Assembly (NCBI GenBank): GCA_035533295.1
Contig: DATLUA010000040.1
Coordinates: forward strand, 559-64,558
DNA length: 64,000 nucleotides
From: Elusimicrobiota bacterium
GTDB taxonomy: Bacteria > Elusimicrobiota > Elusimicrobia > UBA1565 > UBA9628
Direction: 5' to 3'
Within the stretch, counting starts at the first letter, position 1. The number at the start of each line of letters is the position of its first letter. The notes under the pieces were generated by a model. That model ran no database searches and was not told where the DNA came from. It worked only from the letters and a program-made list of their open reading frames with translations. Of this stretch, positions 6,779 through 37,154 are shown piece after piece. The translations under genes were made by a program, and so were the position numbers.

Positions 6779-6829
6779 AGTTTAGGCCCGAAACCGCCGG
6801 TTTTCAAGGACGAAAAGGGGTGATTTGCG

Positions 6830-19703: not shown

Positions 19704-19718
19704 TCGCTTTTTCCCGTT
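19560..19718. repeat. GGAACGG/CCGTTCC inverted-repeat element copy 3 (GGAATGAACGAAGAGGA variant)
   Basis: Purine arm with AACGGAATGAAC x3 at 19571-19640. Pyrimidine arm CTCTTCTTCCGTTTCCACCCGTTTTTTCCGTTCCATTCGCTTTTTCCCGTTC at 19669-19720. The TTCCGTTCCAT(C/T)CG core is shared with copies 2 and 4. Confidence 0.65.
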
Positions 19719-20617: not shown

Positions 20618-22224
20618 ATCTTGATGTCTCCCAGGCTGTTGATGATCTTCATCCCGATGCCGATCCAGACGGTGCAGAAAAGCAGGACGCCCACGCCCAG
20701 CGGCCTGAAGTAGAAGCTCTCCATGGGTCCGGGCTGGAACAGGAACATGATGATGAGCATGACCCAGGGCATGACGCCTACGATGATGCCCTGGATGCGC
20801 TGCTGGGCCGTCATGGCCGCGGTTTTTTCGACGAGCTTGGACTCCTCGCGGATAATCTCCACGATGCGGTCGAAAATCTTGGTCAGGTTTCCGCCCACCG
20901 AGCGCTGGATGACCACGGATTTGATGAGGTAGGACAAAAGGTAGCTCGGCACGCGCTCCTGGATGCCTTCCAGAGCTTTTTCCAGCGGCGTGCCCAACTG
21001 ATAATTCTTGAGGCATAAGCCGAATTCCTCGGAGATGGGCGGCTGCATGTCCTTCTGGACCAGCTCCAGGCACTGCACCAAATCGATGCCGGACTTAAGG
21101 CCGTTGGACATCAAGATAATGGTGTCCATGAGCTGCTTCTCGCATTTGCTCGCCCGGCGAAAGCGCAGGTTGCGCAGAAGCCAGCCGGGCAGCGAAAGCC
21201 CGGCGTAAATCCCGAAGCCGGTGAAAATCATGAAGCCCCAGACATTGAAGGTCAGAAGCCCGATGAGGGCGCCAAACGCGATGGGCCCGCCCACCAAGTA
21301 GTTGACCTTGATGATCAGGAACTGCCTTTCGTATTCCCGCGTCCAATCCTTTGCCTTGGCCTTGTATTTCGCGATCCACTCGTCCAAGGCCTTCTCATTC
21401 ATCGCTCCGGCCAGATATCCGGCCGCGAACATCATCAGAATGCCCAGGACCGAAAGCAAATAGGGGAGCGCGTTGTTCGCGGGAGCCGGCTTTCCTTCCA
21501 GCGCCAGGGCGGAAAATCCGCGCGGCGGCTCGTGCAGTATCTTGTAGGCGTCGTTGCTCAAGGCGCCGATGGCCATGACGCTCTGCCGGTAGCGCAGGAG
21601 TTGCGGCGGCAGGGCGGCCACGGCGGCGGTCTTGCCTTCCGCGGCCATCTTCGACAAGTCCACGGCCACGGGCGGATTCGGCGCCGAGGCCAGGGAGTCG
21701 AGCATGGCCCCCATTTCGGAATCGATGAGCCGCAGATCGGCCAGCAGCGGGCGGCCGCGGCCCTCCAAGGAATCATCGAGGTGGGCGCGGTAGAGCCGGT
21801 CGATGGCCATCTCCATGCGGATATGCTCGTCCGAATAGTCGCCGAGGAGCGCGGTCGGAGAGAGCATTTCCCCGCCGTCGGAAGGCGGCAGGGCCTTTCG
21901 CGTCGTCTCGTAAAAAGTGTAGAGCACGGCCACCGGCGCCTGCCACAAGTCCGCCTCGTTGAGGATGCCCTGCTCGGGATCGTTCCAGACCGGATGGTTG
22001 AGCATGGCGGAGAGAATCCGGTCTATCCACGCGGGCGTCTGCAGGGCTGGATCGCGGTTGGCGCTGAAGTAGTGGTAGAACTCCTGCATGTGCAGCTCGG
22101 CGCCGTTTTGCTGGCCGACCAGGTACTTGATGTCCGCGCGGCTAAAAATCTCCTGGGCCCCGCACAGCGCGGGAGCGAGCAGGAAGAAGAAGCCGGCGGC
22201 CAGAGCCGTGGCGCGCGCTCTCAC
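20614..22224 (-). CDS. tadB: Tad pilus platform protein TadB (T2SSF family) with ~250-aa N-terminal signal-peptide/periplasmic extension
   Basis: The C-terminal 280 aa carry T2SSF motifs (GGNLTKIFDRIVEIIREESKLVEKTAAMTAQQRIQGIIVGVMP). The N terminus has a signal peptide (AAGFFFLLAPALCGAQE) and a ~220-aa domain before the first TM. Confidence 0.7.
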   Translation of the reverse strand: MRARATALAAGFFFLLAPALCGAQEIFSRADIKYLVGQQNGAELHMQEFYHYFSANRDPALQTPAWIDRILSAMLNHPVWNDPEQGILNEADLWQAPVAVLYTFYETTRKALPPSDGGEMLSPTALLGDYSDEHIRMEMAIDRLYRAHLDDSLEGRGRPLLADLRLIDSEMGAMLDSLASAPNPPVAVDLSKMAAEGKTAAVAALPPQLLRYRQSVMAIGALSNDAYKILHEPPRGFSALALEGKPAPANNALPYLLSVLGILMMFAAGYLAGAMNEKALDEWIAKYKAKAKDWTREYERQFLIIKVNYLVGGPIAFGALIGLLTFNVWGFMIFTGFGIYAGLSLPGWLLRNLRFRRASKCEKQLMDTIILMSNGLKSGIDLVQCLELVQKDMQPPISEEFGLCLKNYQLGTPLEKALEGIQERVPSYLLSYLIKSVVIQRSVGGNLTKIFDRIVEIIREESKLVEKTAAMTAQQRIQGIIVGVMPWVMLIIMFLFQPGPMESFYFRPLGVGVLLFCTVWIGIGMKIINSLGDIKI

Positions 22225-24503
22225 GTCAGCAAGCCTCCCCCCTTGGGCCCGCCGACGCCCGCCGCCGGCGGCGCCTTGCCGGAAACTCCGGGCTTGGTCT
22301 CCCGGTAGACCGAGAGCGGAACCTCCAGCCCCTTAAGCTTGAACTCCTCCTGGAAAGTCGGGATGTAGCCGCAGCCCGAAAAATAGCCGATGCTCTGGCC
22401 CTGCTCGTTGACCGTGGTCTGGTGGAAGCGGAAAATGTCCCGCATGTTGATCTGCATTCCCTCGCGACCCGTGACCTCGGTGATGTAGGTGACCCGCCGT
22501 TTGCCGTCCGAAAAGCGCGTGAGCTGGATGAAGATGTTGACGGCGCTGGAAATCATCTCCACCAAGACGGACATGGGCAGCTCGGAGCCCGCCATCAAGC
22601 ACATGGCCGAGAGGCGGGAGATGGCGTCCGAGGGCGAATTGGCGTGAAGCGTGGTGAGACTGCCTTCGTGGCCCGTGTTCATGGCCTGAAGCATGTCCAG
22701 CGCCTCGCCGCCGCGGCACTCGCCGACCACGATGCGGTCCGGGCGCATGCGCAGGCAGTTCTTGACCAAATCGCGGATGCTCACCTCACCCTTGCCCTCG
22801 ATGTTGGCCGGGCGGCCCTCAAGTCGCACCCAGTGCTTTTTAGCCAGCCGCAGCTCGGCGGTGTCCTCGACCGTGATGATGCGCTCGCCGTCCGGGATGT
22901 AGTTGGAGAGCATATTAAGGAAGGTGGTTTTTCCGGTGCCGGTGCCGCCGGAAATAATGACGTTTTTACGCAATAAAACGCATTTTTCCAGGAAATCAAT
23001 CATTTCCTGGGTGCATGAGCCGAAGGTAACGAGCTGGTTGGGCGTGTAGGGCTTGGCGGAAAAGCGCCGGATGGTCAAGGTCGGGCCCGAGACCGCCAAG
23101 GGCGCGATGATGGCGTTGACGCGGGAGCCGTCCTTCAAGCGCGCGTCGACCAACGGGACCGATTCGTCGATGCGCCGGCCAACGGGCGCCACGATGCGCT
23201 TGATGACCTGGATGACCTGCTCGTCGTTCCTAAAGCGCATGGGCAGAAGCACCAGCTGCCCTTGGCGCTCGATATAAATCTTGTCGGCCGCGATGACCAT
23301 GATTTCATTCACGCTGGGGTCGCGCAGCAGGGACTGCAGGGGGCCTAGGCCCAGGATTTCATCCACCAACTCGCCGATGAACTGCTCCCGCTGCGCGCGA
23401 GACAGCGCCAGATTGCGCTCCTTTTGCATGAGCGCCTCGATGATCCCCGCGACCTTGGTCCGGTTCTCCTCGTTCTGGGTCTGATCGTCGGAAATGCGCA
23501 CGTGCTCCGTTTCCATCGCCGCGACCACGCTTTTATGCATCTTGCCCTTAAGCTCATCCCAAAAAGCGGGGACGGCGCCGGAGACGGGAAGGCTAGCGGA
23601 AGGCTTGGCGGGCGCCGCCGATTCTCCGGCCGCCGGCGCCGCCGCGGACTTCCAGAGAAAATCCGCGGCTTGGCCGAACTCCTGGCCGGAAACCGCGGAG
23701 TCCCAGCTTTTGAGCCCGGGTTGGACCTGCAAGGTGCGGCCCAGGACCAGGCGCAGCTGCTTGACCCATTCACTCTGCAGCGATTCCACGACCAGGATTT
23801 TCTGGGTGTTCGCGCACTCCGGCAGGAGATCGTCCCAAGGCATGTACGCCAGCACGCGCTTGTTCATCGTGCTGAAAAACCGATCGACCTCCTTGGGCGA
23901 GAGCGCGCCCGGCAGATTGGCCTGATTGATGATGATCTCGAAGCGCTCCAAGGGGAAATGCAGGTTCTTGAACTCCCCGAACAGGGAATACGTCGCCTCG
24001 AAATGGGAGCGCTGCGGCAGGCAGGTCCAGAACACGAGGTCGGCCACGTCGAAGGCGAAAACCTGCATGGGGAGATACGGATCGACGTCCATGAACAAGT
24101 CGTACTCCTCGGACAAGGCGCCCAGGATATGCGCCGCGGCCTGTGGGGACAGCGCCATGATTTCCTGGCGCTTTTTCGCCAGCGGGAGCAGGCCCACTCC
24201 CCATTTGGTCATGGGAATGCGGCCGCGCAAGAGCCGGCCCACGCCGCCAGTGGAATTTTCCCCGATGATCGGCACGAGGCTCGCCAAGGACGGCGGCTCA
24301 AGAGCCATCTGGAAGCTCAGGTCGTCCCGGCAAAGAGGATCCATGTGCACGATGAGGACTTTCCGGTTCTGGCTGCCGGCCCAGGCCAAAGCGAGATTAA
24401 GGGCTAAAGTGCTCTTGCCCACGCCTTCGCGGGGTCCCGAGAACACTACGACGCGGCCCGGTCCCGCCTTGGGAGCCGCCGCGGTGCCGCCGAGTTCTGC
24501 CAT
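22221..24503 (-). CDS. cpaF: Fused TadZ/CpaE-like (ParA/MinD-type) domain + TadA/CpaF secretion ATPase
   Basis: N-terminal VVVFSGPREGVGKSTLALNLA is a deviant Walker A of CpaE/MinD type. The C terminus carries the VirB11/CpaF signature: Walker A GGTGTGKTTFLN, ITVEDTAELRL, VVGECRGGEALDMLQAMNTGHEGSLTTLHAN. One 760-aa ORF. Confidence 0.8.
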   Translation of the reverse strand: MAELGGTAAAPKAGPGRVVVFSGPREGVGKSTLALNLALAWAGSQNRKVLIVHMDPLCRDDLSFQMALEPPSLASLVPIIGENSTGGVGRLLRGRIPMTKWGVGLLPLAKKRQEIMALSPQAAAHILGALSEEYDLFMDVDPYLPMQVFAFDVADLVFWTCLPQRSHFEATYSLFGEFKNLHFPLERFEIIINQANLPGALSPKEVDRFFSTMNKRVLAYMPWDDLLPECANTQKILVVESLQSEWVKQLRLVLGRTLQVQPGLKSWDSAVSGQEFGQAADFLWKSAAAPAAGESAAPAKPSASLPVSGAVPAFWDELKGKMHKSVVAAMETEHVRISDDQTQNEENRTKVAGIIEALMQKERNLALSRAQREQFIGELVDEILGLGPLQSLLRDPSVNEIMVIAADKIYIERQGQLVLLPMRFRNDEQVIQVIKRIVAPVGRRIDESVPLVDARLKDGSRVNAIIAPLAVSGPTLTIRRFSAKPYTPNQLVTFGSCTQEMIDFLEKCVLLRKNVIISGGTGTGKTTFLNMLSNYIPDGERIITVEDTAELRLAKKHWVRLEGRPANIEGKGEVSIRDLVKNCLRMRPDRIVVGECRGGEALDMLQAMNTGHEGSLTTLHANSPSDAISRLSAMCLMAGSELPMSVLVEMISSAVNIFIQLTRFSDGKRRVTYITEVTGREGMQINMRDIFRFHQTTVNEQGQSIGYFSGCGYIPTFQEEFKLKGLEVPLSVYRETKPGVSGKAPPAAGVGGPKGGGLLT

Positions 24504-24510
24504 AAAATCC

Positions 24511-25272
24511 CTACTTCACGATTTTCATGGTGATGAAAAGATAAAGGGAGTCCTCCGAATCGATGACGCTTTTATGGGTGAAAAGCCAGCCCAAAATCGG
24601 GATGCGCCCCAGGAAAGGAACGCGGGACGTTGAAACGTTCTTGGAGCTCGACTTCAAGCCGCCGATGACGATGGTGTCCCCGCTCTTGACCTCGACCGTG
24701 GACTTGATTTCCCGGTCGGTCACCGAGGGCACGGAGGTGTTGCCCACTTGGACCGTGTGGGAAAAGTCCGGCGCCTGATTGGTGACGTAGATAGCCGCCA
24801 CGATGTCGCCCTTTTTATTCGGATCCAAAATCGGCTTGACGTCGAGCATGGTCACGACTTCCTTCAAATCCACGCCGACGCTTCCCGTCGCTCCGACCAC
24901 CGGATAAGGAATTTTGCTGCCCACCTTGAAATCGGCCTGGCTTCCGGCCTGCACCACGACGCTCGGATTGGACAGCGTCTGCGCCTTGCCCTCGGTCGTC
25001 AGCATCGACAACGACGCCTGCAGCGCGGTCTGCCGGGCGAAATCGCCGATGGCGAAGATGCCGGTCGGAATCGCTTTTTCCGCGAAATTAATCCCGCTTC
25101 CAAACGGCGGCCAGGTCACGCCCATTTCGTTGTCCACCGATCCGGAAATTTCCACGAGATCCGCCGATATCTCGATAAGCGGCGTGGTATCCGGCTGGGC
25201 CTGCGCCCAAAGCCGGGCCGGGCGCCATAAAGCCAGCGCCAGCGCCGTCGCCGCGATCAGTTGTCGTCTCAT
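24511..25272 (-). CDS. cpaC: Minimal secretin (CpaC/RcpA-like)
   Basis: The C-terminal secretin signature GDTIVIGGLKSSSKNVSTSRVPFLGRIPILGWLFTHKSVIDSEDSLYLFITMKIV is present. A signal peptide is present. Only 253 aa, against ~450-500 for typical CpaC. Confidence 0.75.
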   Translation of the reverse strand: MRRQLIAATALALALWRPARLWAQAQPDTTPLIEISADLVEISGSVDNEMGVTWPPFGSGINFAEKAIPTGIFAIGDFARQTALQASLSMLTTEGKAQTLSNPSVVVQAGSQADFKVGSKIPYPVVGATGSVGVDLKEVVTMLDVKPILDPNKKGDIVAAIYVTNQAPDFSHTVQVGNTSVPSVTDREIKSTVEVKSGDTIVIGGLKSSSKNVSTSRVPFLGRIPILGWLFTHKSVIDSEDSLYLFITMKIVK

Positions 25273-25315: not shown

Positions 25316-26074
25316 TCAATGCGAAAAAAGCTGCCGGAAGCTCGCCATTTGCATCGGGTGAAGCTCCACGTCTCCTTGGCCGCGCAAAATGACGGTCGTG
25401 TTTCCTTCCTTGCGGGAAAGCGCCAAATACTGGGCCTCGTCGGGATTAAGCGCCAAGCCGATGACGGCCTTTTGCGCCAGGACGCTGCCTTGCGCCTCGC
25501 TTCCGGACATCTTCTTGAACTGCGCCGCGTTCATGCCCTGGCCCATGTTGTCGCCCACGGAAAGGACCAGGATATCCTGCAAAATCGTCGCGGTCACCTG
25601 CTGCTCGCTGCCGTCCGCCATCTTCGCGTTGAAAGTCACCAGCACGTCCACGCGGTCGCCGGGCTTGATGAGCGGCTCCAATTCCGGATCGATGGGCAAA
25701 ATGGCGCCGCGGTACCCCGGCGGGATCTTCACGGAAAGCCCCGCGTCCGGGGACATGACGCTCAGCTCCGACTGGGTGATTTGATCGCCCATGGGAATGC
25801 GCACGCGGGTGACTAGGTTGTCGATCATCTTGAGGTCCGCCGGGCTCTTGACCTCGAACGCGTCTTGGGCCATGTACTTGCGGGGAATCTCTATGGTGTC
25901 GACCATGCTTTCCTGCAGGACGGTCCGCTGCGGGATGTCGTAGCGCGCGACGATGACCTCGGCCATGGAGTACGCGTTGCTCAGCGCCCGCTCCTTGCTG
26001 GTCAGCACGATGAAGTAGATGAGCCCCGCGGCCATGGCGATGATGAACGGCAGCAAGACGTTTTTCTTATCCAT
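25316..26074 (-). CDS. cpaB: Flp pilus assembly protein CpaB/RcpC-like
   Basis: An N-terminal TM anchor is followed by a SAF/beta-clip-like domain. The gene sits in the cpaB position between tadE and the secretin. Confidence 0.55.
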   Translation of the reverse strand: MDKKNVLLPFIIAMAAGLIYFIVLTSKERALSNAYSMAEVIVARYDIPQRTVLQESMVDTIEIPRKYMAQDAFEVKSPADLKMIDNLVTRVRIPMGDQITQSELSVMSPDAGLSVKIPPGYRGAILPIDPELEPLIKPGDRVDVLVTFNAKMADGSEQQVTATILQDILVLSVGDNMGQGMNAAQFKKMSGSEAQGSVLAQKAVIGLALNPDEAQYLALSRKEGNTTVILRGQGDVELHPMQMASFRQLFSH

Positions 26075-26077
26075 AGT

Positions 26078-26545
26078 TTATTGCGGCAAAGGCTGCTCGA
26101 TGGGCATACGCACGGTCGTGCTGATGGTCCGGTGGCCGCTCCCAATGGGCGTGGCCAGCAGAATGCTGCTGATCGGAAAAACCAGCGGAACCTCATAGGT
26201 TCCCGTCACCAGAAGATCGTAATTCTGGACCTGCGCCTGGTTGTCCTCGAGGGTCGCGAGGTCCTGCGACGCCACCGTCGCGCCCTTGATCATCCGGGAC
26301 ATGAAGGTCTGCAGCGTCGGCGTCACGTCCTGCGGCTGCCCCCCGTTGGGGCCTTCCGCGATCATGGCTCCGATGCGCGCGCACTCGTACGTCGCATGGT
26401 TAAGCATGATGACCCAGAACGCCAGATAGCCCATTTCCATGATGGTAAAGACGATGGTCAGGAAGACCGGGAGAATGAGGAGCACCTCCACCATCGCTTG
26501 CCCCCCATTGTCCCGACCCGACCCGCGCCTGCGTCTGTGCGTCAC
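26078..26545 (-). CDS. tadE: TadE-like pseudopilin
   Basis: GTG start. NGG|QAMVEVLLILPVFLTIVFTIMEMGYLAF...ATYECARIGA is a classic TadE/TadF N terminus with the +5 Glu. Confidence 0.7.
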   Translation of the reverse strand: MTHRRRRGSGRDNGGQAMVEVLLILPVFLTIVFTIMEMGYLAFWVIMLNHATYECARIGAMIAEGPNGGQPQDVTPTLQTFMSRMIKGATVASQDLATLEDNQAQVQNYDLLVTGTYEVPLVFPISSILLATPIGSGHRTISTTVRMPIEQPLPQ

Positions 26546-26563: not shown

Positions 26564-26782
26564 TCATCCGCCGTTGGGATTGGCCAGATTGCCCGCCGCG
26601 CCGCTGATGGACTGGGATATCTGATTGAAGAGATTGGGCAGATACTTCTTGATCGCCACGCCGACGATCAAGGCTCCCGCGACGATGACGGACAGCAAAA
26701 GCAGATATTCGACCGTATTCTGCCCTTTTTCCCCGCGCGCCCGAGACAGCGCCCGCGTCAGCCTCAGCTTCATTTCGATCAT
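26564..26782 (-). CDS. flp: Flp-family type IVb pilin 1
   Basis: EKG|QNTVEYLLLLSVIVAGALIVGV carries the Flp motif G/xxxxEY. 72 aa. A strong AGGAGGAGG Shine-Dalgarno sequence lies upstream. Confidence 0.8.
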   Translation of the reverse strand: MIEMKLRLTRALSRARGEKGQNTVEYLLLLSVIVAGALIVGVAIKKYLPNLFNQISQSISGAAGNLANPNGG

Positions 26783-26815: not shown

Positions 26816-26980
26816 TCAATAATAGGACGTCAAAATCTTGACTCCAGCGGCCTTGAAGAGCGTCCCCAACTGGCCCTGTAGGAAGCGGAACATGCCCGCG
26901 AAAAACAGAACCAGGGCCATGCTGATCAACAAATATTCCACTGTTGACTGTCCGCGCTCTTTTTTCCCGCGAATCTCCAT
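26816..26980 (-). CDS. flp: Flp-family type IVb pilin 2 (not in the ORF track; 54 aa)
   Basis: Reverse-complement translation gives MEIRGKKERG|QSTVEYLLISMALVLFFAGMFRFLQGQLGTLFKAAGVKILTSYY*. A GAGGG Shine-Dalgarno sequence lies 8 nt upstream, and the gene has its own promoter. Confidence 0.7.
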   Translation of the reverse strand: MEIRGKKERGQSTVEYLLISMALVLFFAGMFRFLQGQLGTLFKAAGVKILTSYY

Positions 26981-26997: not shown

Positions 26998-27026
26998 AGT
27001 GTAACAGCGCCGTTTCTCATTGTCAA
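26998..27026 (-). promoter_or_regulatory. Sigma70-type promoter of flp2 (TTGACA-17-TGtTACACT)
   Basis: On the coding strand: cTTGACAatgagaaacggcgcTGtTACACTgccagagggatggcgacATG. It has a perfect -35, a 17-bp spacer and an extended -10. Confidence 0.5.
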
Positions 27027-27048: not shown

Positions 27049-28029
27049 TTAAAACTTAACGGTCATTGAAATTTGCTCGACCACTCCCAGAGCGCCGAAC
27101 GGGACAAACGCGTAGTCTATTCCGAGTCCGTAGCCGAACGCCTCGGACGTGTACATCCCCAGCCCGAACGTAAAACCCGAGGTTTCGTTGAGGTGCAGGG
27201 TCTGCAGCGCCCCGTTGAAGCTTTGCCCCATGTTGTTGAGATTGGACCAGCCGGCGCGCAAGGTCAGTTGGGCCACTTCCAGGTACTGCTCCGGAATCTG
27301 GAATTCCGCGCCGATGCCCACGTGAGTATTATCATCGGCCGGCTTATTGACCTCGCAGCTCAGGGTCAAAAAATCGTTGAGCCGCCAACCCACGCCGCCG
27401 CGGACAATCGAGGACACGTCCGACATCCGCGCGCCCAAGTTCTGCGCGGCGAAGCCAAGAGAGAGCCGCTGGTTGGGCTGAAAAATGGCGCCCAAATCGC
27501 CCACCAAGCTGTCATGAACGGCCCCGGCGTTGTCCTCATGGACTTCCCGCAGCGTCGCTCCCAGAAAAAGACGCTCGTACCAGAATGACCGCGCGACCGC
27601 CACGCTGCCGAAACCGTCGTGGACCTGGACCGTGGAATTAGGCTGGGGAATGCCGTTTTGATCCCGGACGTCGAAATTACTATCGCTGATATAGGAGAAA
27701 TTTCCGCCGACCACGGTGCGGCCGAAAGGCTGGACGTAAGCCATGTACACCGGCGTGTCAAGGCCTTGAACGTAGCTGAGATAAGAATACTGCAGTTCCC
27801 GCTCCTCGGCGCGCGCGATGCCGGCCGGGTTCCAAATCATGGCGTCGGCGCCCTCGGCGACGGCCACGAAGGCGTTGCCCAAGGCCATGGCGCGGGCCGA
27901 GCCTTGATTCAGATAAAGGAAGGCCGCGCCGCCCGTGCCCGCGGCGGGATTAATGGCATTCGCCCAAAGAGCTTTGCGCCCCCGAACAAGGAGCAGGCCC
28001 GCCGCGAAAAGCAAAGCTCGCCGTTTCAT
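27049..28029 (-). CDS. FadL/PorV-family outer-membrane beta-barrel protein
   Basis: The N-terminal motif GGAAFLYLNQGSARAMALGNAFVAVAEGADAMIWNPAGIA is shared by FadL/TodX and PorV/PorQ-type barrels. Alternating beta-strand pattern, C-terminal Phe. 4-nt overlap with the upstream giant protein gene. Confidence 0.55.
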   Translation of the reverse strand: MKRRALLFAAGLLLVRGRKALWANAINPAAGTGGAAFLYLNQGSARAMALGNAFVAVAEGADAMIWNPAGIARAEERELQYSYLSYVQGLDTPVYMAYVQPFGRTVVGGNFSYISDSNFDVRDQNGIPQPNSTVQVHDGFGSVAVARSFWYERLFLGATLREVHEDNAGAVHDSLVGDLGAIFQPNQRLSLGFAAQNLGARMSDVSSIVRGGVGWRLNDFLTLSCEVNKPADDNTHVGIGAEFQIPEQYLEVAQLTLRAGWSNLNNMGQSFNGALQTLHLNETSGFTFGLGMYTSEAFGYGLGIDYAFVPFGALGVVEQISMTVKF

Positions 28030-31000
28030 TGCAGGAGTATTTTCTTGACGGTCTGATAGACTTCCGCTCCGCCCAACGTCCCCTCTTCACGGATGACCGC
28101 GTAGTAGATGCCGCGCGCCACGGTCCGGCCGGCCTGGTTGGCCTTGTTCCAAACGAACGTCACCGGCCCGGCGTTATAGCTGGGCGCGGTATTGGGAAAG
28201 TCATGCGTGTAGACAAGCTCCCCGGCGATGTTGTAAATCCGCAAATGCGCGACGGCCTGCACCGGGAAGTATATCTGGAACGTCGCGGTCGGATAGTTGC
28301 CGGGCACGGGGTTGGGATAGACGAAGGTGTTCCCCTCGAAATCTCCCTGGGGATCGGCCGATGCGCCGCGCGTGACCGGAATCTCGCCGAAAGATTGGAA
28401 ATCGTTGGCCAGAGCGCTCGGCACGAGGACGTTCCCCGTGATGTCGTCGATGGCGTTCATATCGGTCGAAGCCGAAATGGTGAATTCATAGTTGCCGTCG
28501 GGAACCTTGGAATAAGTCATATCCGTTCCATTCCAAACGGTCTGCGCCTGCGTCCGCGCCGGCTCGACGCCGACGATAAGCTTGATCAGGGAAATCGACG
28601 CGGGAGGCGTCGGGTTGCCGAAGGGATCAAAAGTTGTCCCCGGTTTGTAAATCTTGATGGCCACCTTCATCGGCTGGGAGACCTGATAGAAAATGGTGCC
28701 GCTGGGATGCGCCGCGTCCATGATGGTGGCGGCCTCGTCGTAGACCTGCAGAGGCTGATAGGCGACGGTGGCCTCGGCCGTGGACAAAGACAATTGGGAA
28801 TTCTCGGAGGCAATGTCCTGCGCCAAGACCTCGACCGTGTAGAATCCGGGAGCGAGGTAATGGCCGCTGTCGTCCAAACCGTCCCAGACGTCGCTGATGG
28901 AAATGCCTCCGTCCCGTTCCTGGCCGGCAATCACGGTCCGAACGACGTTAAAAGGCGCGTTGGTGTTCAGAACCCGAATGGTCACCGAAGAGACGCGCGT
29001 CAGCGAGTAGTCGATGGTGTAGGGAGGCAGCTGCACCGTGGCCGCGGCGCTGGAGTTGAAGAGCTGCGGAATGGTGGGGTTGACGGCGAAGGTCGGGAAG
29101 CCCACGTATCCTCTTTGCACCGCCACCGTCCCCTCGATTTTATCCGTCGCGTACATAGCCGGCGTGGAGGTGGACTGCGCCACGAAATCGTAAACATAAT
29201 CCCCATCAGGCACGGTCAGGCCGTTGATGTCCCGGCCGTTCCAATTCTCCGTCACGTGGAAGCGCCCCGCTCGGAAACCGTAGATGCTTATAATTGGAGC
29301 GACCTCGGCTCCGCCCGGGCCCACGACGTCCGCGCAGTTGCCGCCGACCAACTGCCCGCACGGCGGCCAATCGGTGCTCTGGTTTTTGAATATTGTGCCC
29401 GGAGGGTAGATGTTCCAAGCGACGTTCATGTTGTTGGAAAGCTGATACGTCAAGGACGCGACGTCTCCCGTGGTGCCGACCAGGAGCGGCTGCACTTGGA
29501 CGTCGGTGATGCGGAACAAGTCCACGGGGAACATGACCGTCGTCGTCGTGACCTGCGCAGGGACGAAAGGATCGGAGGCCGCCAACTGCGCGATGTACAC
29601 GCCTGAACTCACCACCTGGCCGTTGTCGCCCACGCCGTCCGACCAGGTTTCGGAAATTCCCGTGTTTCCCGGACGGATCTCGTTGTTGACCAAGGTTTTG
29701 ACCACTTGGCCCAAGGAATTGATAATCACGAAATTCACGTTGGCCTCGCGCGACAAGGAGTAGTCGAACGTGAAGGGATCAATCCCGGTCACGGGCGGAC
29801 TGGATCCCACGACCGTGGTAATCGGCGTGATTTGGCTGACTCCCACGTAGCCGCGCGAGATGGGAATAAAGCCGGTCTTGGCCACGGAAGTCCAGATGCG
29901 ATCATCGCCCGGGCTTCCCGAAGTGCACGCCCCGCTTTGGCAGAATGGGAAGCCTTCCTGGGACGGCAAATCGGCGTACATGACGAAGACATAATCGCCG
30001 TCCGGCATGACCTGCTCGGAGTTGTTCAGGCCGTCCCAAAAGGTGACCACGGGCGTCCGGGAAATCTGCTGCGTCACGAAATGCTTGATGGGCGCGACCA
30101 AACTAACCGCATTGCCTCCGCTGCAGCCGCCGCTGGAGGGTTCGAAATCTTTGGGCGTCCCGATTCCGCCGACAGCGGGCTGCGAGTCCAAGGACACGCT
30201 GTTGACGTTGTTCAAGGATGAGCAGAACGTCGTCCCGGGCGGGTAAACGTCGACGTAGACCGTGGCCGGCTCGGTCAGCGTGTAGGTCAGCACGGCCAGG
30301 GAGGTGGAGCCCCCCAAAAGCGGCTGGACCTGGATGTCGGTGATTTGAAGAGGATCGAGGCTGATTTGAGATGTGGTCGCGTAGGAAAGATCCTGCCCGT
30401 ATTGATCCACCGAATTGGACTGCAACGTCGCCAAATAGTTGCCGGGCGGCATTATCTGGCCGTTGTTGTCCCGTCCATCCCAGGCATCCCCGTCAGTCAA
30501 AGATCCATTGGGGACGCCTTCGCCGGGCTCCGGCAAGCCCGGAACAACGGATCGAATAATAGAGGCACTGGGCGGCTCCGAGATGTCAAGATAAAAAGAC
30601 GCATCCTGAGATAGTCGGTAAGTGATGTTATATGGTTCCGCAGCTACGCCCGTAATTTTTCCAACAATCGTCGGAGTCGACTGGATCGCATGCACATCGT
30701 TCGCGTTAACCACAATCGGCTGTTGCGAAACGATATTATCCGTCTGCCCAGGTTGCTCTGAGTTGGCATCATAGGTGGAGCCCTGCGGATAAGCGCTTTG
30801 CGCGCTAACTTGGATGTTGCCTTGAGTTCCGACTTGGTTTGTCGTTACAGTCGCTCGGACGCCGTACTCTCCATCGGATCGTCCGAATCCACCCTGAATG
30901 TTGATGCTTCCATCCCAAATCACGCAGTAAGGCCCGAGAGGGCCCGTGCAGGCGGGATTCGTTTGCACCTGCGTTGAGTTAGTGGTCGTATCATAATAGT

Positions 31001-31835
31001 TAACGAAACCGACTTCGTTGCTGTTGCAGCCGCCGCCAGGGATAGTCCCAGGCGAGTTGATAAAAAACGTCCTAACCGGAGGGGTCGAGCTTGGGTCTAG
31101 GGGGTTTGAACCGTTTTGGTACTTAAAAATTTCAAATTCCAGTTGATCTATGCCGACTGGAGTGCTTTGCAGTCCGCTGTCGCTGTTGTTGTATCCGATG
31201 GACGCGCAAACAAAAACTTCGTTATTGCAAATATTGCTGGAACTAACGCCCACATTGAAAGGACCGCCGCCTGCTAAAGTGCTGCCATAGGTCGTCCCGC
31301 ATTGTTGGGCATAGGAAGGCTGAGCGAATTGTATTTCCGGATCGTTAGAAATGTTCCCGAAGCCGCGTGAACCGCTGGTAAATGTATAACTGCTTACGTA
31401 TGCGCCCGAACTAGTGCCAATGGTAATAGAAGACACGATGGTCGCATTGGCGTTTTCGATCGGGTCCTGGCTCGGTGGACCGATAAAATCGTCAGCATTA
31501 AAAAAAACGTTATTAACGGTAACGCCATTGCAAACGGACTGCGTCGTTCCGTTAATATCGGCATTAAAGCATGCTTGACATGCCGGAGGAGCTGCGGCTT
31601 GCCCGCCCGGGACATTGCAGCATGTCTGACAATTCAACGGCGGACAATAGAAATAAAGATTTCCGCTGGAATCAATCTGAGAAATGCAGTTTTTATTTAC
31701 CTGATGCACGTACATCTGGTCGACATAGAGCTGGAACGCCGAGGCGGTGCGCGCGCAAATAATGAAGACGGCGCAGACGAGCGTCGCGCCGGAAAGATTG
31801 AAAAACTTCGTGAAACCCTGTTGTCGAGAGCTCAT
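28026..31835 (-). CDS. Giant secreted Ig-repeat surface protein with FlgD-Ig-like repeats and T9SS-like C-terminal sorting domain
   Basis: Signal peptide, then a Cys-rich N-terminal module. At least six repeats carry the W-x-G-x-D-x-x-G-x-x-V/M-P-D-G-x-Y signature (TFWDGLNNSEQVMPDGDYVF, WNGRDINGLTVPDGDYVY, WDGLDDSGHYLAPGFYTV ...). The C-terminal ~90 aa (YPNPVPGNYPTATFQIYFPV...HLRIYNIAGELV...VTFVWNKANQAGRTVARGIYYAVI...KKILLQ) resemble the Por secretion tail domain. Confidence 0.6.
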   Translation of the reverse strand: MSSRQQGFTKFFNLSGATLVCAVFIICARTASAFQLYVDQMYVHQVNKNCISQIDSSGNLYFYCPPLNCQTCCNVPGGQAAAPPACQACFNADINGTTQSVCNGVTVNNVFFNADDFIGPPSQDPIENANATIVSSITIGTSSGAYVSSYTFTSGSRGFGNISNDPEIQFAQPSYAQQCGTTYGSTLAGGGPFNVGVSSSNICNNEVFVCASIGYNNSDSGLQSTPVGIDQLEFEIFKYQNGSNPLDPSSTPPVRTFFINSPGTIPGGGCNSNEVGFVNYYDTTTNSTQVQTNPACTGPLGPYCVIWDGSINIQGGFGRSDGEYGVRATVTTNQVGTQGNIQVSAQSAYPQGSTYDANSEQPGQTDNIVSQQPIVVNANDVHAIQSTPTIVGKITGVAAEPYNITYRLSQDASFYLDISEPPSASIIRSVVPGLPEPGEGVPNGSLTDGDAWDGRDNNGQIMPPGNYLATLQSNSVDQYGQDLSYATTSQISLDPLQITDIQVQPLLGGSTSLAVLTYTLTEPATVYVDVYPPGTTFCSSLNNVNSVSLDSQPAVGGIGTPKDFEPSSGGCSGGNAVSLVAPIKHFVTQQISRTPVVTFWDGLNNSEQVMPDGDYVFVMYADLPSQEGFPFCQSGACTSGSPGDDRIWTSVAKTGFIPISRGYVGVSQITPITTVVGSSPPVTGIDPFTFDYSLSREANVNFVIINSLGQVVKTLVNNEIRPGNTGISETWSDGVGDNGQVVSSGVYIAQLAASDPFVPAQVTTTTVMFPVDLFRITDVQVQPLLVGTTGDVASLTYQLSNNMNVAWNIYPPGTIFKNQSTDWPPCGQLVGGNCADVVGPGGAEVAPIISIYGFRAGRFHVTENWNGRDINGLTVPDGDYVYDFVAQSTSTPAMYATDKIEGTVAVQRGYVGFPTFAVNPTIPQLFNSSAAATVQLPPYTIDYSLTRVSSVTIRVLNTNAPFNVVRTVIAGQERDGGISISDVWDGLDDSGHYLAPGFYTVEVLAQDIASENSQLSLSTAEATVAYQPLQVYDEAATIMDAAHPSGTIFYQVSQPMKVAIKIYKPGTTFDPFGNPTPPASISLIKLIVGVEPARTQAQTVWNGTDMTYSKVPDGNYEFTISASTDMNAIDDITGNVLVPSALANDFQSFGEIPVTRGASADPQGDFEGNTFVYPNPVPGNYPTATFQIYFPVQAVAHLRIYNIAGELVYTHDFPNTAPSYNAGPVTFVWNKANQAGRTVARGIYYAVIREEGTLGGAEVYQTVKKILLQ

Positions 31836-31940
31836 GTAAGCCTAAACCGTTGTCTTCCGGGCGATACTATACCCGAAATTCCGTTGCGCTTTTATTAACT
31901 GGCTATTAAAGGATTGTAAATTCCGCGGCGGGCAAACGCT
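31836..31940 (-). promoter_or_regulatory. AT-rich upstream region of the ~32-kb minus-strand gene array; candidate promoter(s)
   Basis: This is the only sizeable AT-rich non-coding gap at the head of the co-directional array. TATAGT and TTTACA-like hexamers sit upstream of the ATG at 31835. Confidence 0.3.
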
Positions 31941-33709
31941 TAATAGCGGAACTTCACGAAGCTGGGGGACGTCCGGCTTCCGGCCGGCGCGGCCAAAATC
32001 CAGAGCTGCCGCTGCCCGCCCATTTTCACCGCGGTCATGCCGATGACGTTTTCTCCCAAGTCATAGGACGCCCGCAGCGAAAAGGATCCGTCCTTGAAAT
32101 CGTAAACGCCGAGCCTGCGGGTCTTGGAGTCGAAGTCCCATAGGCTGCCGGAAACCCACAGCAGGGACGTCGGAACCGCGCCGCCAAGCCCAAAGGATTG
32201 GACGCGCCCGTCCGCGCCGTAGCGATCCAGGGACCGGTTGGCCGCGTCATAGCACCAGATGGCCTTGCCGTCGTAAGCCATGGCCGTGGGCGCGGGACCC
32301 TCCGCGGGCAGCGTCGCGGCCACCACGCCCGGGTCCGAGGCCGCGACGCGAACGAGCCTGGCTTGGGCCGCGTCCGCGGTCCAGAGAGAATCGCCGGCGG
32401 AAACAATCGAGACCGGATGATAAGGAGGCTTGACGTTGGGCGCGAGAGTCGTCGGCGCCGCCTGCAAATCGAGCGGATTAAAGGCGTCCAACTCCCCGTT
32501 CCATTGCGAGACCCAAATTTTCGTGCCGTCGTAGGCCATCCCGGTGGGATTGGCCAGCGACGTCGGAACTTCCGCGACGGGCTGAAAATGAAAGGCCGAG
32601 TAGTATTTCCAAACCGGAATGGACGCCGCGGCGAGAACGGCCGCGGTCGCCAGGCCCGCCCAGATCCGCCGCGAGATCCGCCGTTTCTCTTGCGGCAGGC
32701 CCAGCAGCGCGACCGCGCGCAAAACGTTCTGGATTTTGGACGTGGTCTCGGTGGATTGGCGCAAGGTCTCCGCCATCTGGGACGCGAAGCGCAGATGATC
32801 TTCCTCTTTGGCCTTCAACTCCGCGTGCCAGCTCTGGCGCTCGCGACGCAGCTTGTCCTCCCAGGCGGAAAACTCGGTGCGCTGCGTCTCCCAGGTCGAG
32901 CGCTCCCGGTCCCAGAGCTCGCGCCACTGCGCCCGCTCTTCCTCCCAAATCTTGGAGAGCTCCTCGAAATGCCGCTGCGCCTCGTCCACTTTCTTCAACG
33001 CCTCGGAGCGCTCTTTTTCGGTTCCCTCGCGGACTTGCCGCTCGCGCAAAAGCTCGGCCAAAGTTTTTTCCAGCGCGTTTTTCGCTTCCTTGAGGCTTTG
33101 CGACAATTTTTCCACGTCGCTTTGCGTCCGCGCGGCGTCGTCTTGGCGCGTTTGCGCCAGGGATTCCATCGACTGCATCTGCGCCAAGTATTTTTCTTCT
33201 TTCTTTTCCCAACTTTTGCGCTCTTTCTTCCAGATGTCGGCCTCGCCCATCAGGCGATGCCGGGTCTGCTCCAAAAGGGCGCGCAGGCGCTTCTCGTCTT
33301 CCTCGTGGCGCTGCCGCTCTTCCTTGAGGCTCGACAGCGCGGCTTCAAGCCGGGCCTGGACGTCCAGGTAGCCTTCCAGGGAGCTTTCCTCGGCGCTCCG
33401 AACCTGCCGGCGCAAACCGGCGATTTCGTTTTCCAGAAGGCGCTGGCGTTCGCGCAGGGCCGAGACTTGCTTCTCCTTGGCCTCAAGCATCTCGGACCAG
33501 GCCAACGCCTCGCTGCGGTGCTTGCTGCGCAAAAGGGAAACGGTTTCCCACGCCGCGCTGGGAGCTTCGGGAAGGGCGGTCATCGAGGGGATATCGGAAA
33601 CATCGGCGCCGGGAGATTGCGGCGCGCTCCGGGACACCTTGGCCCAGAGCCGCTCAATTTCCCCGCGCCACTCCGGCTGGGAGGACTCCTGCGGCGTTTC
33701 GCTCGCCAT
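31940..33709 (-). CDS. Bitopic membrane protein: long N-terminal coiled coil, TM helix, periplasmic beta-propeller-like domain
   Basis: About 350 aa of heptad-rich E/R/K/L/Q sequence. The TM helix is IWAGLATAAVLAAASIPVW. C-terminal repeats with W/Y-D motifs follow (GMAYDGTKIWVSQWNG..., AMAYDGKAIWCYD...). Probably a leaderless or very short-leader mRNA. Confidence 0.5.
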   Translation of the reverse strand: MASETPQESSQPEWRGEIERLWAKVSRSAPQSPGADVSDIPSMTALPEAPSAAWETVSLLRSKHRSEALAWSEMLEAKEKQVSALRERQRLLENEIAGLRRQVRSAEESSLEGYLDVQARLEAALSSLKEERQRHEEDEKRLRALLEQTRHRLMGEADIWKKERKSWEKKEEKYLAQMQSMESLAQTRQDDAARTQSDVEKLSQSLKEAKNALEKTLAELLRERQVREGTEKERSEALKKVDEAQRHFEELSKIWEEERAQWRELWDRERSTWETQRTEFSAWEDKLRRERQSWHAELKAKEEDHLRFASQMAETLRQSTETTSKIQNVLRAVALLGLPQEKRRISRRIWAGLATAAVLAAASIPVWKYYSAFHFQPVAEVPTSLANPTGMAYDGTKIWVSQWNGELDAFNPLDLQAAPTTLAPNVKPPYHPVSIVSAGDSLWTADAAQARLVRVAASDPGVVAATLPAEGPAPTAMAYDGKAIWCYDAANRSLDRYGADGRVQSFGLGGAVPTSLLWVSGSLWDFDSKTRRLGVYDFKDGSFSLRASYDLGENVIGMTAVKMGGQRQLWILAAPAGSRTSPSFVKFRY

Positions 33710-33855: not shown

Positions 33856-34552
<697 letters not shown>

Positions 34553-34563
<11 letters not shown>

Positions 34564-35776
34564 GATTTCTCTTCGCGGCGGGAATACGCGCGGCAGTGGC
34601 GGCGGTTGACGCCGGGCGGCGGAAGCCCTTGTCCTGCATGTAGAGCGTCATGACCGCCATGGCGTCCTGCGCGCGCCCGCTGGTGTTGTTATAAACCGCG
34701 ACCAGCTCGTAGTCGTGGCTCTTGTATAAGGGAAGGCCCGACTCGCTGGAGTAGGAGCCAACTTCGGACAAGCCTATCGCATCGGCCCGCTCTTTCGCCC
34801 TCGCCGTCCAGAGCGTCTTGCCCGCGGTCAGGTCGCGCAGGGCCAGGCTCACCGCGAAAGGATGCAGATGCGCCTCGATGTAATGGACGCGCGTGTCAAA
34901 GGGCAGGTTCAGGAGATGGGTCGCCAAGGTGCGGTAGACGTGCCGGCCCGGCGGCACGGCGAAGTGTCCGGAGTAGCGCCGCCCCTGCGCGTCGGTGTAG
35001 ACGCTGCCCATCATGGCGTTGGGCGCGTTTTGGCCGGGCGCGCAGGCCGCCGCGGCCTGGGCGGGAGTGGGGCGCGCCGCGCCGAAGACCTCCGGCCGCC
35101 CGTCGAGGCTCACCATGACGAAAGGGGAATCGGCGAAAAGGGGCTTCATCGGCCGCCCCGCGCCCTTGTCCGGCGCGAACTCGATGGTGATTTTGTGGCG
35201 GACGCGATAAGAGCCGGGATGGTTGAAGTTGAGCACCTGGGTCGCCACCGACAAGGGCTCGTCGGACATCAACGGCATGCCGTAACCGGGCGGAAAGCGC
35301 ACGCTCAACTGCCCCTGCGAGAGGGTCGCGATGCGGATGCTGACGTTTTTCTTCCAGCCGAAGAGCGCGCGGTGGCGCGCCATGTCGGCGAAATCCAGGT
35401 TGGCATGGCACATGAAGTCCGCGGGCCTGGGCCTTTTGCCCCGCGGGCCCACCATTTCGGTTTTGAAGCCCGTAATCCAAAGGAGCCCCGGCGGCTTTTC
35501 CGCGTCGAGAACGACATCCCGGACGCTCGACGGGCCTTCCATGGACTTATAGAACCGATCGACGAGATAATCCCGGGACAAGACCACCTTGGTCGCCGCG
35601 CGGCCGAAGACGGCCGAAGACAGGGCGGCAAAAGCGAGGGCGCACGAAAAAAGGCCGCGACGGAAATGCCGCTTGGTCATCTTTTGCCTATGGCGCAGAC
35701 AAAGTTTACCCCCCCCCGCCGCGAAAGTCAAGTAAAAAACCAGTAAACCAGCGAATGCCGGGAAATGCGTCGGCAT
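34553..35776 (-). CDS. Hypothetical secreted protein (likely start at ATG 35680, MTKRHFRRGLFSCALAFAALSSAVFG signal peptide)
   Basis: Normal amino-acid composition and a predicted signal peptide. No recognisable motif. 11-nt overlap with the polyPro pilin gene. Confidence 0.45.
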
Positions 35777-35786
35777 CAGAGGCGGA

Positions 35787-37154
35787 CTATCTGTTCTGCA
35801 GCAGCCGCACCAACTCCTGGTTGGCTTGGCTTAAATCCACGCCGGTTCCCTGGTATTGGCGGAGGATGCTTTTCAAGTCCTCGATGAGCGCGGAATCGGC
35901 CGCGCCCTGGCTCTTCATCTGCTGGTAGGCGCTCCAGTCCTTCTCGAAAAGAATCTGCGGGGTGTTTTTCTCGGCCGCGGATTTCTCCCGCAGGCGCTTC
36001 TCCTTATCCTGGATGCTTTGGAATTTTTGCAGGGAATCCTGATACTGCTGCTGCAGATCGCCCAGCCGCTTGCGCGCCTCGGCCTCGGAAATGGTCCGGT
36101 TCAGAAGCTGATTATCCAAGACCTTTATCTCGTCGCGCAGGGCATTAAGCTGCTGGGAGAGCTGCCACTGCTTGTTCTCCGCGGCTTCGAGCTCCCGCAG
36201 GAGAATGCCGCGGTAGTCCGTTTCATCCTTAAGCATGCGCTCGAACTCGGCCTCGGGGTCGGAGGCGCCGAAGCGCCAGGAGACAGACAGGGCGTTGCCC
36301 AGGCGCGCCGCGCCCTTCAAGGGAATGGTGAGCGCGTAATCCGCCTCGCCGCCCATGATTTTCCAGCCCAGACCCATGCTCCAGGTCTGATCCCTATCGC
36401 CGGCGCGAAGCCCGAGACGCGCGGCCACGGCGCCATGCCGCACGGTTTCCCACCAGCGCTCCAAGCCCGCGCCGGCGCTGGTTTCCTCGCGGTAGAGCCC
36501 CGAGGGGCCCTCGTGGGCGACGTCGAAAACGAAAGTCATGTCCCGGACCGATTCGGACACGCCGGCGCGCAAGTCCACCGGCGGCTTGACGCCCCCGACC
36601 CGGCCGCCGCTCAGGTTTAAAATCGAGACCCCAGCGGCATACTTGTCATGAAAGCGCTCAACGGCTCCCATGTCCAAGGCCACGGTCATATCCGAAGCCC
36701 CCCCGGTGGCGGCAGCCGCGTCCAAAAACTTGAGATTCCCGCCCGCCTCGAGATCATCCCCCGGCGCCTGCCACAGCCCCTGGGTCGCGTAGCTAAACTG
36801 GGTGGTCCGCTCCGAGGAATAATTGAGCGGGGCGTCGTAGATTTCCGAAAGTCCCAGCACGCCGACGCTCACCGGCGCGACGGCGACCAAATTGGCTTGG
36901 CTTTGATCCGTAAAGCCGGCCGGAAGGTTGAATTGCCGCAAGGCGTTCAAGGAAAGCGAAACGTGCCTGGCAAACGCGATGCCCGCGGGGTTGTAGAACA
37001 CGGCGGCCGGATCGCCGGTCATCGCAGTGAAAGCGCCGCCCATGGCCACGGCTCGCGCGCTGAAGCCCTCGTCCTCGAAAGAAGCGTAAAGCGGAGATGC
37101 TAAGCCCAAAAAAAGCGCGGCTACGACGGCGGGGCGAATCATAGGAAGCCTCAC
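35787..37154 (-). CDS. FadL/PorV-like beta-barrel N-domain fused to C-terminal coiled-coil domain
   Basis: Signal peptide, then FSARAVAMGGAFTAMTGDPAAVFYNPAGIA (the same family motif as 27049..28029) and ~290 aa of beta-rich sequence. The C-terminal ~150 aa are heptad coiled coil (QLNALRDEIKVLDNQLLNRT...). Confidence 0.5.
   Translation of the reverse strand: MRLPMIRPAVVAALFLGLASPLYASFEDEGFSARAVAMGGAFTAMTGDPAAVFYNPAGIAFARHVSLSLNALRQFNLPAGFTDQSQANLVAVAPVSVGVLGLSEIYDAPLNYSSERTTQFSYATQGLWQAPGDDLEAGGNLKFLDAAAATGGASDMTVALDMGAVERFHDKYAAGVSILNLSGGRVGGVKPPVDLRAGVSESVRDMTFVFDVAHEGPSGLYREETSAGAGLERWWETVRHGAVAARLGLRAGDRDQTWSMGLGWKIMGGEADYALTIPLKGAARLGNALSVSWRFGASDPEAEFERMLKDETDYRGILLRELEAAENKQWQLSQQLNALRDEIKVLDNQLLNRTISEAEARKRLGDLQQQYQDSLQKFQSIQDKEKRLREKSAAEKNTPQILFEKDWSAYQQMKSQGAADSALIEDLKSILRQYQGTGVDLSQANQELVRLLQNR
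35797..35866. repeat. 70-bp direct repeat copy B (functional 3' end of gene 35787..37154)
   Basis: See copy A. It encodes the authentic C terminus ...GTGVDLSQANQELVRLLQNR*. Confidence 0.8.

Follow-up and report, generated by a model that had tools for sequence, protein, structure and literature searches.

An Ig-repeat giant with a T9SS-like C-terminal domain and an overlapping PorV/PorQ-family barrel gene at the Tad locus of Elusimicrobiota: a putative cargo-anchor pair

Described barrel-anchored proteins and the Elusimicrobiota gene pair

In the attachment complex that belongs to the P. gingivalis type IX secretion system (T9SS), a FadL-fold barrel, PorV or PorQ, holds one protein in a 1:1 fashion through an uncleaved C-terminal beta-sandwich (PMC5562754, PMC10947112, PMC10202324), with PorQ anchoring PorZ and PorV anchoring PorU by C-terminal domains (CTDs) that stay uncleaved (PMC5562754, PMC10947112), and a review extends this to "cognate PorV-like barrels", proposed to retain particular CTD proteins (PMC10202324). 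For CTD proteins of type B, the bound barrels are of the PorP/SprF family (PMC9143113); SprB-SprF and PG1035-PorP, in which a large adhesin is both co-encoded with and attached to a barrel of its own that anchors it at the surface, one per cargo, offer the closest parallel to a barrel reserved for one large surface adhesin (PMC9143113). Here we describe two overlapping genes, encoding a giant immunoglobulin (Ig)-repeat protein of 1269 amino acids (aa) and a PorV/PorQ-family outer-membrane barrel of 326 aa, at the head of a Tad (Flp) pilus locus in a 64,000-nucleotide (nt) stretch of DNA from an Elusimicrobiota bacterium (GCA_035533295.1, contig DATLUA010000040.1, positions 559-64,558 of the forward strand; hereafter the window). 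The PorQ-PorZ and PorV-PorU pairs are the closest known counterparts, and we consider, at a probability of roughly 0.55, that giant and barrel are cognate partners, a cargo and its anchor, as in PorZ-PorQ or PorU-PorV.

The giant (28026-31835), the barrel (27049-28029) and the Tad genes are all encoded on the minus strand. The stop codon of the giant and the start codon of the barrel share the 4 nt ATGA at 28026-28029 (minus), as read directly from the junction ...CTG CAA TGA / ATG AAA CGG, in which the two genes lie in different frames. No Shine-Dalgarno-like sequence was found ahead of the barrel start in the window copy, while both downstream pilin genes, flp1 and flp2, do have one; the missing ribosome-binding sequence and the conserved 4-nt overlap together are the hallmark of coupled translation with re-initiation. 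Between barrel and flp1 there are 68 nt, in which a sigma-70-like promoter sequence (TTGACA-17-TACACT plus an extended TG; 26998-27026, minus; a consensus match only, though a strong one) and no terminator-like site were found; transcription of the pilins may be separate from that of the pair. The G+C content dips to 53.5% at 30001-32000, compared to about 60-64% in the surroundings, and the dip coincides with the variable N-terminal part of the giant. An earlier reading of this stretch (the original prediction) had named the FlgD-Ig-like repeats of the giant, the 4-nt overlap and the flp genes lying directly downstream of the pair, all of which hold.

Compared to PorQ-PorZ, the likeness lies in both partners, with PorQ being the best equivalog-level match of the barrel and the PorZ CTD the best match of the giant's tail, although the scores are far under the equivalog cut-offs (50.7 versus 220 bits for the barrel, 37 versus 260 for the tail). 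Moreover, porQ and porZ are part of a T9SS of about 20 components, whereas the host phylum here is not known to have a T9SS; PorZ is a beta-propeller lipopolysaccharide carrier, whereas the giant is a chain of Ig repeats; and the genes here are, by their overlap, translationally coupled and lie within a Tad locus. To our knowledge, porQ and porZ are not adjacent genes. The type B systems resemble the pair in the provision of one barrel for one large protein, but the barrel here belongs to the PorV/PorQ and not to the PorP/SprF family, and the tail is type A/PorZ-like. Among solved structures and PDB sequences alike, the one nearest to the barrel is PorV of the F. johnsoniae SprA-PorV-RemA CTD complex (PDB 8gl6/6h3i), and the tail shares with the type A cargos of PorV the motifs YPNP, GxY and a K-x-hydrophobic C-terminus; there, however, one PorV serves dozens of cargos at the SprA translocon, whereas here each cargo has its own barrel.

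Family assignments of the barrel and the giant

The barrel carries a signal peptide, an N-terminal NPA-containing segment placed inside the barrel, 14 strands and a C-terminal Phe, and its motif GSARAMALGNAFVAVAEGADAMIWNPAG aligns with the equivalent stretch of F. johnsoniae PorV, in agreement with the PorV-like N-terminal motif named in the original prediction. Against the NCBIfam models, it scored 87.4 bits with PorV_fam (NF033709; E = 1.3e-24, aligned over residues 3-326 of 326, and 2.6 bits below the cut-off of 90), 50.7 bits with PorQ (NF033711; cut-off 220) and 25 bits with PorV (NF033710; cut-off 250), and it gave no match to the PorP/SprF model TIGR03519. A profile built from 32 homologues, across which WNPAG is invariant, was searched against the PDB sequences and matched F. 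johnsoniae PorV alone (E = 1e-5, identity 18%). The AlphaFold2 (AF2) model of the barrel (predicted local distance difference test score, pLDDT, 77) shows 14 strands following an N-terminal segment that contains WNPAG, and its top Foldseek match was PorV from the substrate-bound translocon complex (8gl6_F; E = 6e-10, template modelling score, TM, 0.63). When the profile was searched against a representative library of 1.84 billion proteins, 8689 clusters were reached at E <= 1e-3 and only 28 at E <= 1e-30; the nearest 100 non-orthologous cluster representatives all matched PorV_fam (best E = 5e-67), and over these 100 the PorQ model gave a stronger best E value (5.5e-50) than the PorV model (3.7e-34). 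The barrel sequence is 100% identical to that of a hypothetical protein in an Elusimicrobiota metagenome assembly. Hundreds of homologues are 54-65% identical to the barrel, all of them from Elusimicrobia where named, and NCBI calls the orthologues PorV/PorQ family. By these sequence models, the barrel is a member of the PorV/PorQ family in the broad sense and an orthologue of neither PorV nor PorQ. The predicted agreement with a PorV model was thus found in part, the window copy scoring below the cut-off of 90 bits while the E values are significant and orthologues and paralogues pass.

Were the barrel simply a FadL-type transporter for hydrophobic compounds, adjacent to the giant without any functional meaning, one would expect what it does share with FadL/TodX channels, namely a 14-strand FadL fold with an NPA-containing N-terminal segment, and FadL, TodX and TbuX were significant structural matches (TM 0.55-0.59, at lower identity than PorV), accompanied by a weak match to Pfam Toluene_X (FadL, PF03349). 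However, the Toluene_X score of 20.5 bits lies below the cut-off of 29.7 and covers only the N-terminal part of the model (positions 13-112 of 421), compared to the full-length 87.4 bits of PorV_fam, no FadL sequence in the PDB matched the barrel profile at E <= 1, and, as the NPA motif is common to FadL and PorV, the "hatch" does not tell the two apart. The sequence models put the barrel with PorV/PorQ, and its genomic partner is a secreted protein rather than a catabolic operon. Since the conserved 4-nt coupling to a CTD protein and the cassette enrichment described below (p = 7e-15) also speak against a chance neighbourhood, we regard the transporter explanation as very improbable, and the earlier view of the barrel as PorV/PorQ-like and not a fatty-acid FadL stands.

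The giant consists of a signal peptide, a variable N-terminal third rich in Cys, Asn, Ser and Thr, seven FlgD-Ig-like domains and a separate C-terminal domain. The predicted Sec signal peptide (residues 1-33, ...CARTASA/FQ; 31737-31835, minus) was recognised by eye: the n-region is basic, the core hydrophobic, and an AxA site is present. The N-terminal third gave no family match. Eight W-x-G...G-x-Y motifs are present, seven internal and one in the tail, and Pfam FlgD_ig scored 117 bits on the whole protein and also matched each dissected segment. Across 52 orthologues, residues 300-1269 are about 50-60% identical, comparable to the barrel, and residues 1-300 are variable, with indels. In the databases, the NCBI record HVA66500.1 holds only an 824-aa version ("FlgD immunoglobulin-like domain containing protein") and JGI labels the orthologues "flagellar hook assembly protein FlgD"; each of the two overlooks the signal peptide, the N-terminal third or what kind of protein this is. 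Whichever reading of the pair is true, the present labels ("flagellar hook assembly protein FlgD", "hypothetical protein") mislead.

The T9SS-CTD-like C-terminal domain spans residues ~1153-1269 (28029-28379, minus) and was assigned as a beta-sandwich from NCBIfam and Pfam scores, hidden Markov models (HMMs) and an AF2 model. Its sequence follows the pattern YPNP...IYNIAGELV...WNK.N..GR.VARGIYYAVIRE...QTVKKILLQ. Type A tails are marked by (Y/F)PNP near the start of the domain, G-x-Y in the penultimate strand and K-x-hydrophobic on the C-terminal strand, and the corresponding motifs are present here as YPNP at 1173-1176, RGIYYAV at 1241-1247 (within GIYYAVIRE) and VKKILLQ at 1263-1269. An HMM of the orthologue tails recovered the giant's tail at E = 7e-50 and barely registered the internal repeats (independent E values, i-E, of 5.7-10 only), so that the tail is a domain in its own right rather than just the final repeat. 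Scored alone, the tail reached 27.9 bits with FlgD_ig (cut-off 27), 19.3 bits with CHU_C (PF13585; cut-off 27), 15.5 bits with PF18962 (cut-off 27) and 19.6 bits with TIGR04183 (E = 6.5e-4; cut-off 23), and its top family-level match was the PorZ CTD, represented by the C-terminal ~80 positions of the PorZ model (37.4 bits, E = 1e-9; the cut-off of 260 is that of the whole-model equivalog). In addition, an HMM of the paralogue type A tails described below matched the giant's tail at i-E = 1e-15, some orthologues of the giant carry PF18962, and one orthologue at the equivalent locus position (P0177) bears the NCBI name "T9SS type A sorting domain-containing protein". Judged by these matches, the tail is clearly related to T9SS tails, though it formally fails the type A models; of the Por-tail domain claimed in the original prediction, the T9SS-CTD-like character is retained, with its motifs and its PorZ match, and formal passage of TIGR04183 and PF18962 is not. 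An AF2 model of residues 1020-1269 (pLDDT 92) consists of two beta-sandwiches, and a PDB fold search with the tail model returned generic tandem beta-sandwiches, with the fibronectin (Fn) domains of C5a peptidase first and PorU at ranks 6-7.

A type B signal (CHU_C PF13585 / TIGR04131) was also considered for the tail and rejected, as the tail stays below the CHU_C cut-off (19.3 < 27) and CHU_C cross-reacts with FlgD-Ig-like repeats; the 33 bits that it scores on the whole giant are the sum of weak matches to the Ig repeats. The cross-reaction is evident from a second FlgD-Ig protein in the window, on whose internal domains CHU_C scores 106 bits. This FlgD-Ig/OmpA protein (1120 aa; 50499-53861, plus) contains six FlgD_ig matches, Big_13 and a Lsa66-like region, and ends in an OmpA-type peptidoglycan-binding domain in place of a CTD.

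Conservation of the pair and recurrence of the cassette

A one-genome-per-species scan returned 441 barrel relatives, and the loci of the best 80 were examined. Loci with a barrel at least 40% identical were taken as orthologous, giving about 45 distinct orthologous loci. The giant-barrel-flp-Tad order was kept in all of them, the conserved gene order being tsaD, TMEM260-like, u455, u589, giant, barrel, flp1, flp2, tadE, cpaB, secretin, cpaEF, tadB, tadC, and a 4-nt overlap between the giant stop and the barrel start (ATGA, GTGA or TTGA) was observed in 39 of 45 distinct loci, with GTG or TTG starts in most. Because the order is held in all ~45 loci, the pair is to be seen as ancestral and not as a recent insertion; on this synteny, it is ancestral to a large part of the Elusimicrobiota and a fixed component of the Tad locus there. 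The suggestion in the original prediction that a cargo-shuttle pair had been inserted into a Tad operon is therefore abandoned.

Two loci depart from the usual arrangement of genes. In a low-GC Elusimicrobia metagenome-assembled genome (MAG; locus L059, 3610-7734), giant and barrel form a single open reading frame of 1374 aa, for which a Rosetta-stone fusion was considered and rejected in favour of read-through: other sequence stands in for the tail's final strand, while the Met/start codon and signal peptide of the barrel are retained. A lost stop codon or an assembly error probably accounts for it. Another locus (L062, 8-3963) carries an extra cassette, consisting of a CTD protein of 898 aa and a barrel of 309 aa, at the usual position of u455 just upstream of u589, which suggests that cassettes can be gained beside the Tad block.

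Away from Tad genes, paralogous barrels of 27-33% identity occur in the same genomes and in a few Firestonebacteria, Desantisbacteria and unclassified MAGs, where they lie directly downstream of other large proteins (517-1871 aa), at times with an equal 4-nt overlap. The tails of these cargos resemble textbook type A, for example ...IFNVAGELI...WNAKN..G..IASGVYIY......KKGKLAIIR. Using an HMM built only from the tails of the Tad-linked giants, and not from the tails under test, we found a C-terminal CTD match in 16 of the 19 large proteins immediately upstream of a paralogous barrel, compared to 1 of 84 other large proteins at the same loci (Fisher p = 7e-15). TIGR04183 was passed by 8 of 10 paralogue-cassette tails tested, and the PorZ CTD matched all 10 (20.7-65 bits), being the best or second-best match for nine. 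No third conserved partner gene was found around the paralogue cassettes, the neighbours being housekeeping genes (ligA, alaS, recB-like). The overlap in 39 of 45 loci and this enrichment show that the pairing of giant and barrel is beyond chance. By these comparisons, the Tad-linked pair is one of several such cassettes per genome, and the arrangement recurs as a two-gene cassette. The barrels are paired 1:1 with individual cargo genes, which replaces the shared shuttle of the original prediction; among its three alternatives, that of a dedicated anchoring partner for an adhesin fits best.

The pair might instead be an ordinary client of a canonical T9SS, with a SprA/Sov translocon and a GldKLMN motor/ring, encoded elsewhere in the genome, the barrel taking the giant from the translocon as proposed for PorQ with PorZ. 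A type A/PorZ-like tail and a PorV/PorQ-like barrel are what such a system would use, T9SS genes are typically dispersed in the genome, and the names given by PGAP to related Elusimicrobiota proteins ("T9SS type A sorting domain-containing", "PorV/PorQ family") point the same way. On the other hand, a systematic survey found T9SS in Bacteroidetes only (PMC4793230), we found no open-access paper linking Elusimicrobia with T9SS, and one barrel per cargo is seen here, whereas in Bacteroidota PorV is shared. We obtained no match to a T9SS core family among the ~57 window proteins scanned, in line with the original prediction, which had seen none in the window, nor among nine large neighbours of paralogue cassettes. 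We hold a canonical T9SS client to be unlikely.

In the cargo-anchor reading that we favour, the giant would be exported by Sec, and its C-terminal beta-sandwich, probably kept uncleaved, would dock 1:1 on the PorV/PorQ-like 14-strand barrel. The barrel would be translated through re-initiation at the overlapping ATGA, and this translational coupling would supply the partners in matched amounts. Binding of the giant's CTD by the barrel is suggested by their genomic association, that is, by the 4-nt coupling and the cassette enrichment. Once docked, the barrel may tether a chain of ~1200 residues, made of Ig domains and bearing a variable tip, at the outer membrane, where the chain would most likely be located on the cell surface as an adhesin-like fibre.

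Several observations weigh against this reading. PorZ in the known system requires the Sov/SprA translocon to reach PorQ, and, as no translocon is known in Elusimicrobiota, surface exposure of the giant is an assumption. The tail of the window copy is below the curated type A cut-offs (TIGR04183 and PF18962), the window barrel is just short of the curated PorV_fam cut-off, and the tail fold is a generic beta-sandwich, so that searching by fold is not informative. Almost no variation is seen in several of the barrel's predicted periplasmic turns, and docking from the periplasmic side is also possible; conservation is high on the loops and turns of both predicted faces (the topology being inferred) and does not indicate the side of tail binding. 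Finally, residues 300-1269 of the giant are conserved as strongly as the pilus machinery, which one would not usually expect of an adhesin and which could mean that the giant serves as a structural part of the Tad apparatus.

The Tad locus and the wider bearing of the cassettes

The locus downstream of the pair contains a Tad (Flp) pilus set, with Flp pilins, a TadE-like protein, CpaB/RcpC, secretin, CpaF/TadA ATPase and TadB/TadC all present on the minus strand. Flp-type pilin 1 (54 aa; 26816-26980) bears the cleavage motif G/QSTVEY and has orthologues in all loci, and Flp-type pilin 2 (72 aa; 26564-26782) bears the cleavage motif G/QNTVEY and scores 19.9 bits with Pfam Flp1_like (cut-off 33.5). 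They are followed by a TadE-like pseudopilin (26078-26545; Pfam TadE, 41.8 bits), CpaB/RcpC (25316-26074; TIGR03177, 106 bits, cut-off 71), a short secretin of 253 aa (24511-25272; Pfam Secretin, 138.7 bits), a 760-aa fusion of a CpaE-like ParA with the CpaF/TadA ATPase (22221-24503; T2SSE 211, CbiA 33 and TIGR03819 318 bits), a TadB-like platform protein (20614-22224; T2SSF, 67.7 bits) and a TadC-like platform protein (T2SSF, 68.7 bits). The longest reading frame of the latter covers 19718-21073, and its true start probably lies near 20617, which would give ~300 aa as in the orthologues (298-305 aa). A tetratricopeptide repeat (TPR) protein at 18255-19703, a candidate TadD-like pilotin, scores 42.8 bits to the N-terminal TPR region of Amuc_1098, and its position is conserved. 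No prepilin peptidase was identified among the genes of the Tad locus. The set, including the TadD-like TPR protein, resembles Aggregatibacter tad and Caulobacter cpa in content and in the usual order, and differs from them by the very short secretin and the CpaE-CpaF fusion. The secretin is a core with little N-terminal region, and both peculiarities are kept in the orthologous loci.

Upstream of the giant, two further envelope proteins belong to the conserved block. The u589 protein (31940-33709, minus), whose gene immediately precedes that of the giant in every orthologous locus, combines a long coiled coil at its N-terminus with a single transmembrane helix and a C-terminal propeller-like domain that gives a weak Vgb_lyase match. 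The u455 protein (35787-37154, minus), which in nearly all orthologous loci keeps its place two genes upstream of the giant, is a PorV/PorQ-like barrel with a C-terminal coiled coil of ~150 aa; it has no Pfam match, scores 43.8 bits with PorV_fam (E = 2e-11) and E = 5e-15 with our own barrel HMM, and shares the N-terminal motif G..A.GGAF.A...D..A...NPAG with the barrel. Together, u589 and u455 may form an envelope-spanning unit.

These neighbours bear on a further explanation, in which the giant and the barrel are structural parts of the Tad machine, either as an accessory or collar for the short secretin or as a pilus-associated fibre. The position of the pair directly before flp, invariant in all orthologous loci, its conservation at a level near that of CpaB and secretin, a secretin of only ~250 aa and the presence of u455 and u589 in the block would all suit such a role. 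Yet cassettes of barrel and CTD protein recur many times without Tad genes, a TadD-like TPR protein is already encoded in the locus, a promoter-like site lies between barrel and flp1, and no Tad system described so far has such components. On balance, a part in the Tad machine seems distinctly unlikely, rather more so than a canonical T9SS client, and the Tad outer-membrane accessory envisaged in the original prediction is weakened in particular by the Tad-free cassettes and the TPR protein. Under the cargo-anchor reading, a functional link between the giant and the pilus would still be conceivable from their shared locus.

Other genes in the window lie beside or apart from this block. Between u455 and u589, at 33856-35776 (minus), are a prepilin-type protein of 235 aa with ~50 consecutive prolines and a 407-aa unknown protein; the two are missing at that position in the closest relative examined (L005, with a barrel 92% identical) and in most other loci in which both u455 and u589 were seen, a few loci carry other material there, and by this comparison the segment appears to have been inserted locally. 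At the block's upstream edge, many orthologous loci conserve a TMEM260-like / PMT_2 protein O-mannosyltransferase (37158-38876, minus). Human TMEM260 mannosylates Ig-like IPT domains, and by analogy the substrates of the enzyme here could be the Ig repeats of the giant or the pilins. Further away, a cluster of prepilin-type (N_methyl) genes at 4290-11174 (minus), one 857-aa member of which has CarboxypepD_reg and lamin-tail domains, is a pseudopilin set like those of type II secretion systems (T2SS) and type IV pili, unrelated to the Tad locus.

Both components of the giant-barrel pair belong to kinds already known, and some relatives carry the labels "PorV/PorQ family" and "T9SS type A sorting domain-containing" at NCBI. 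In the literature, we came across no account of such an arrangement, whether for T9SS in Elusimicrobia, for PorV together with Tad or for "PorV-like" proteins, and no described Tad locus with a PorV-like barrel or a giant CTD protein. What appears undescribed is that translationally coupled one-cargo-one-barrel cassettes exist outside Bacteroidota, that they recur, and that one copy has become fixed at the head of the Tad locus.

Type IX secretion is regarded as a speciality of Bacteroidota, and the cassettes bear on how its cargo-recognition parts, the CTDs and the PorV-family barrels, arose. Here, CTD and barrel occur outside Bacteroidota as cassettes of one cargo and one barrel, coupled in translation by the evidence of their overlaps, and one of them is built into the Tad locus across the phylum. 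As a bolder and tentative proposal, which we find possible and doubt more than we believe, the cassette of CTD protein and PorV/PorQ-like barrel could be a self-sufficient surface-display module, working without the T9SS translocon or motor and widespread in Elusimicrobiota and neighbouring candidate phyla. If so, the half of type IX secretion that recognises cargo exists without SprA/GldKLMN, and its origin may likewise have been independent of them, and the Tad-linked giant would cross the outer membrane by other means, for which the Tad secretin (in a T2SS-like manner) or a BAM-assisted route, through or alongside the giant's own barrel, are candidates. Should the genomes lack SprA and GldKLMN, CTD-barrel docking can act as a stand-alone anchoring (or export) device, and the cassettes would offer a simple two-gene system for studying it. 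Should a T9SS be present, its known host range would be widened, and "cognate barrel" anchoring in the style of PorZ-PorQ would be the usual mode, not an exceptional one.

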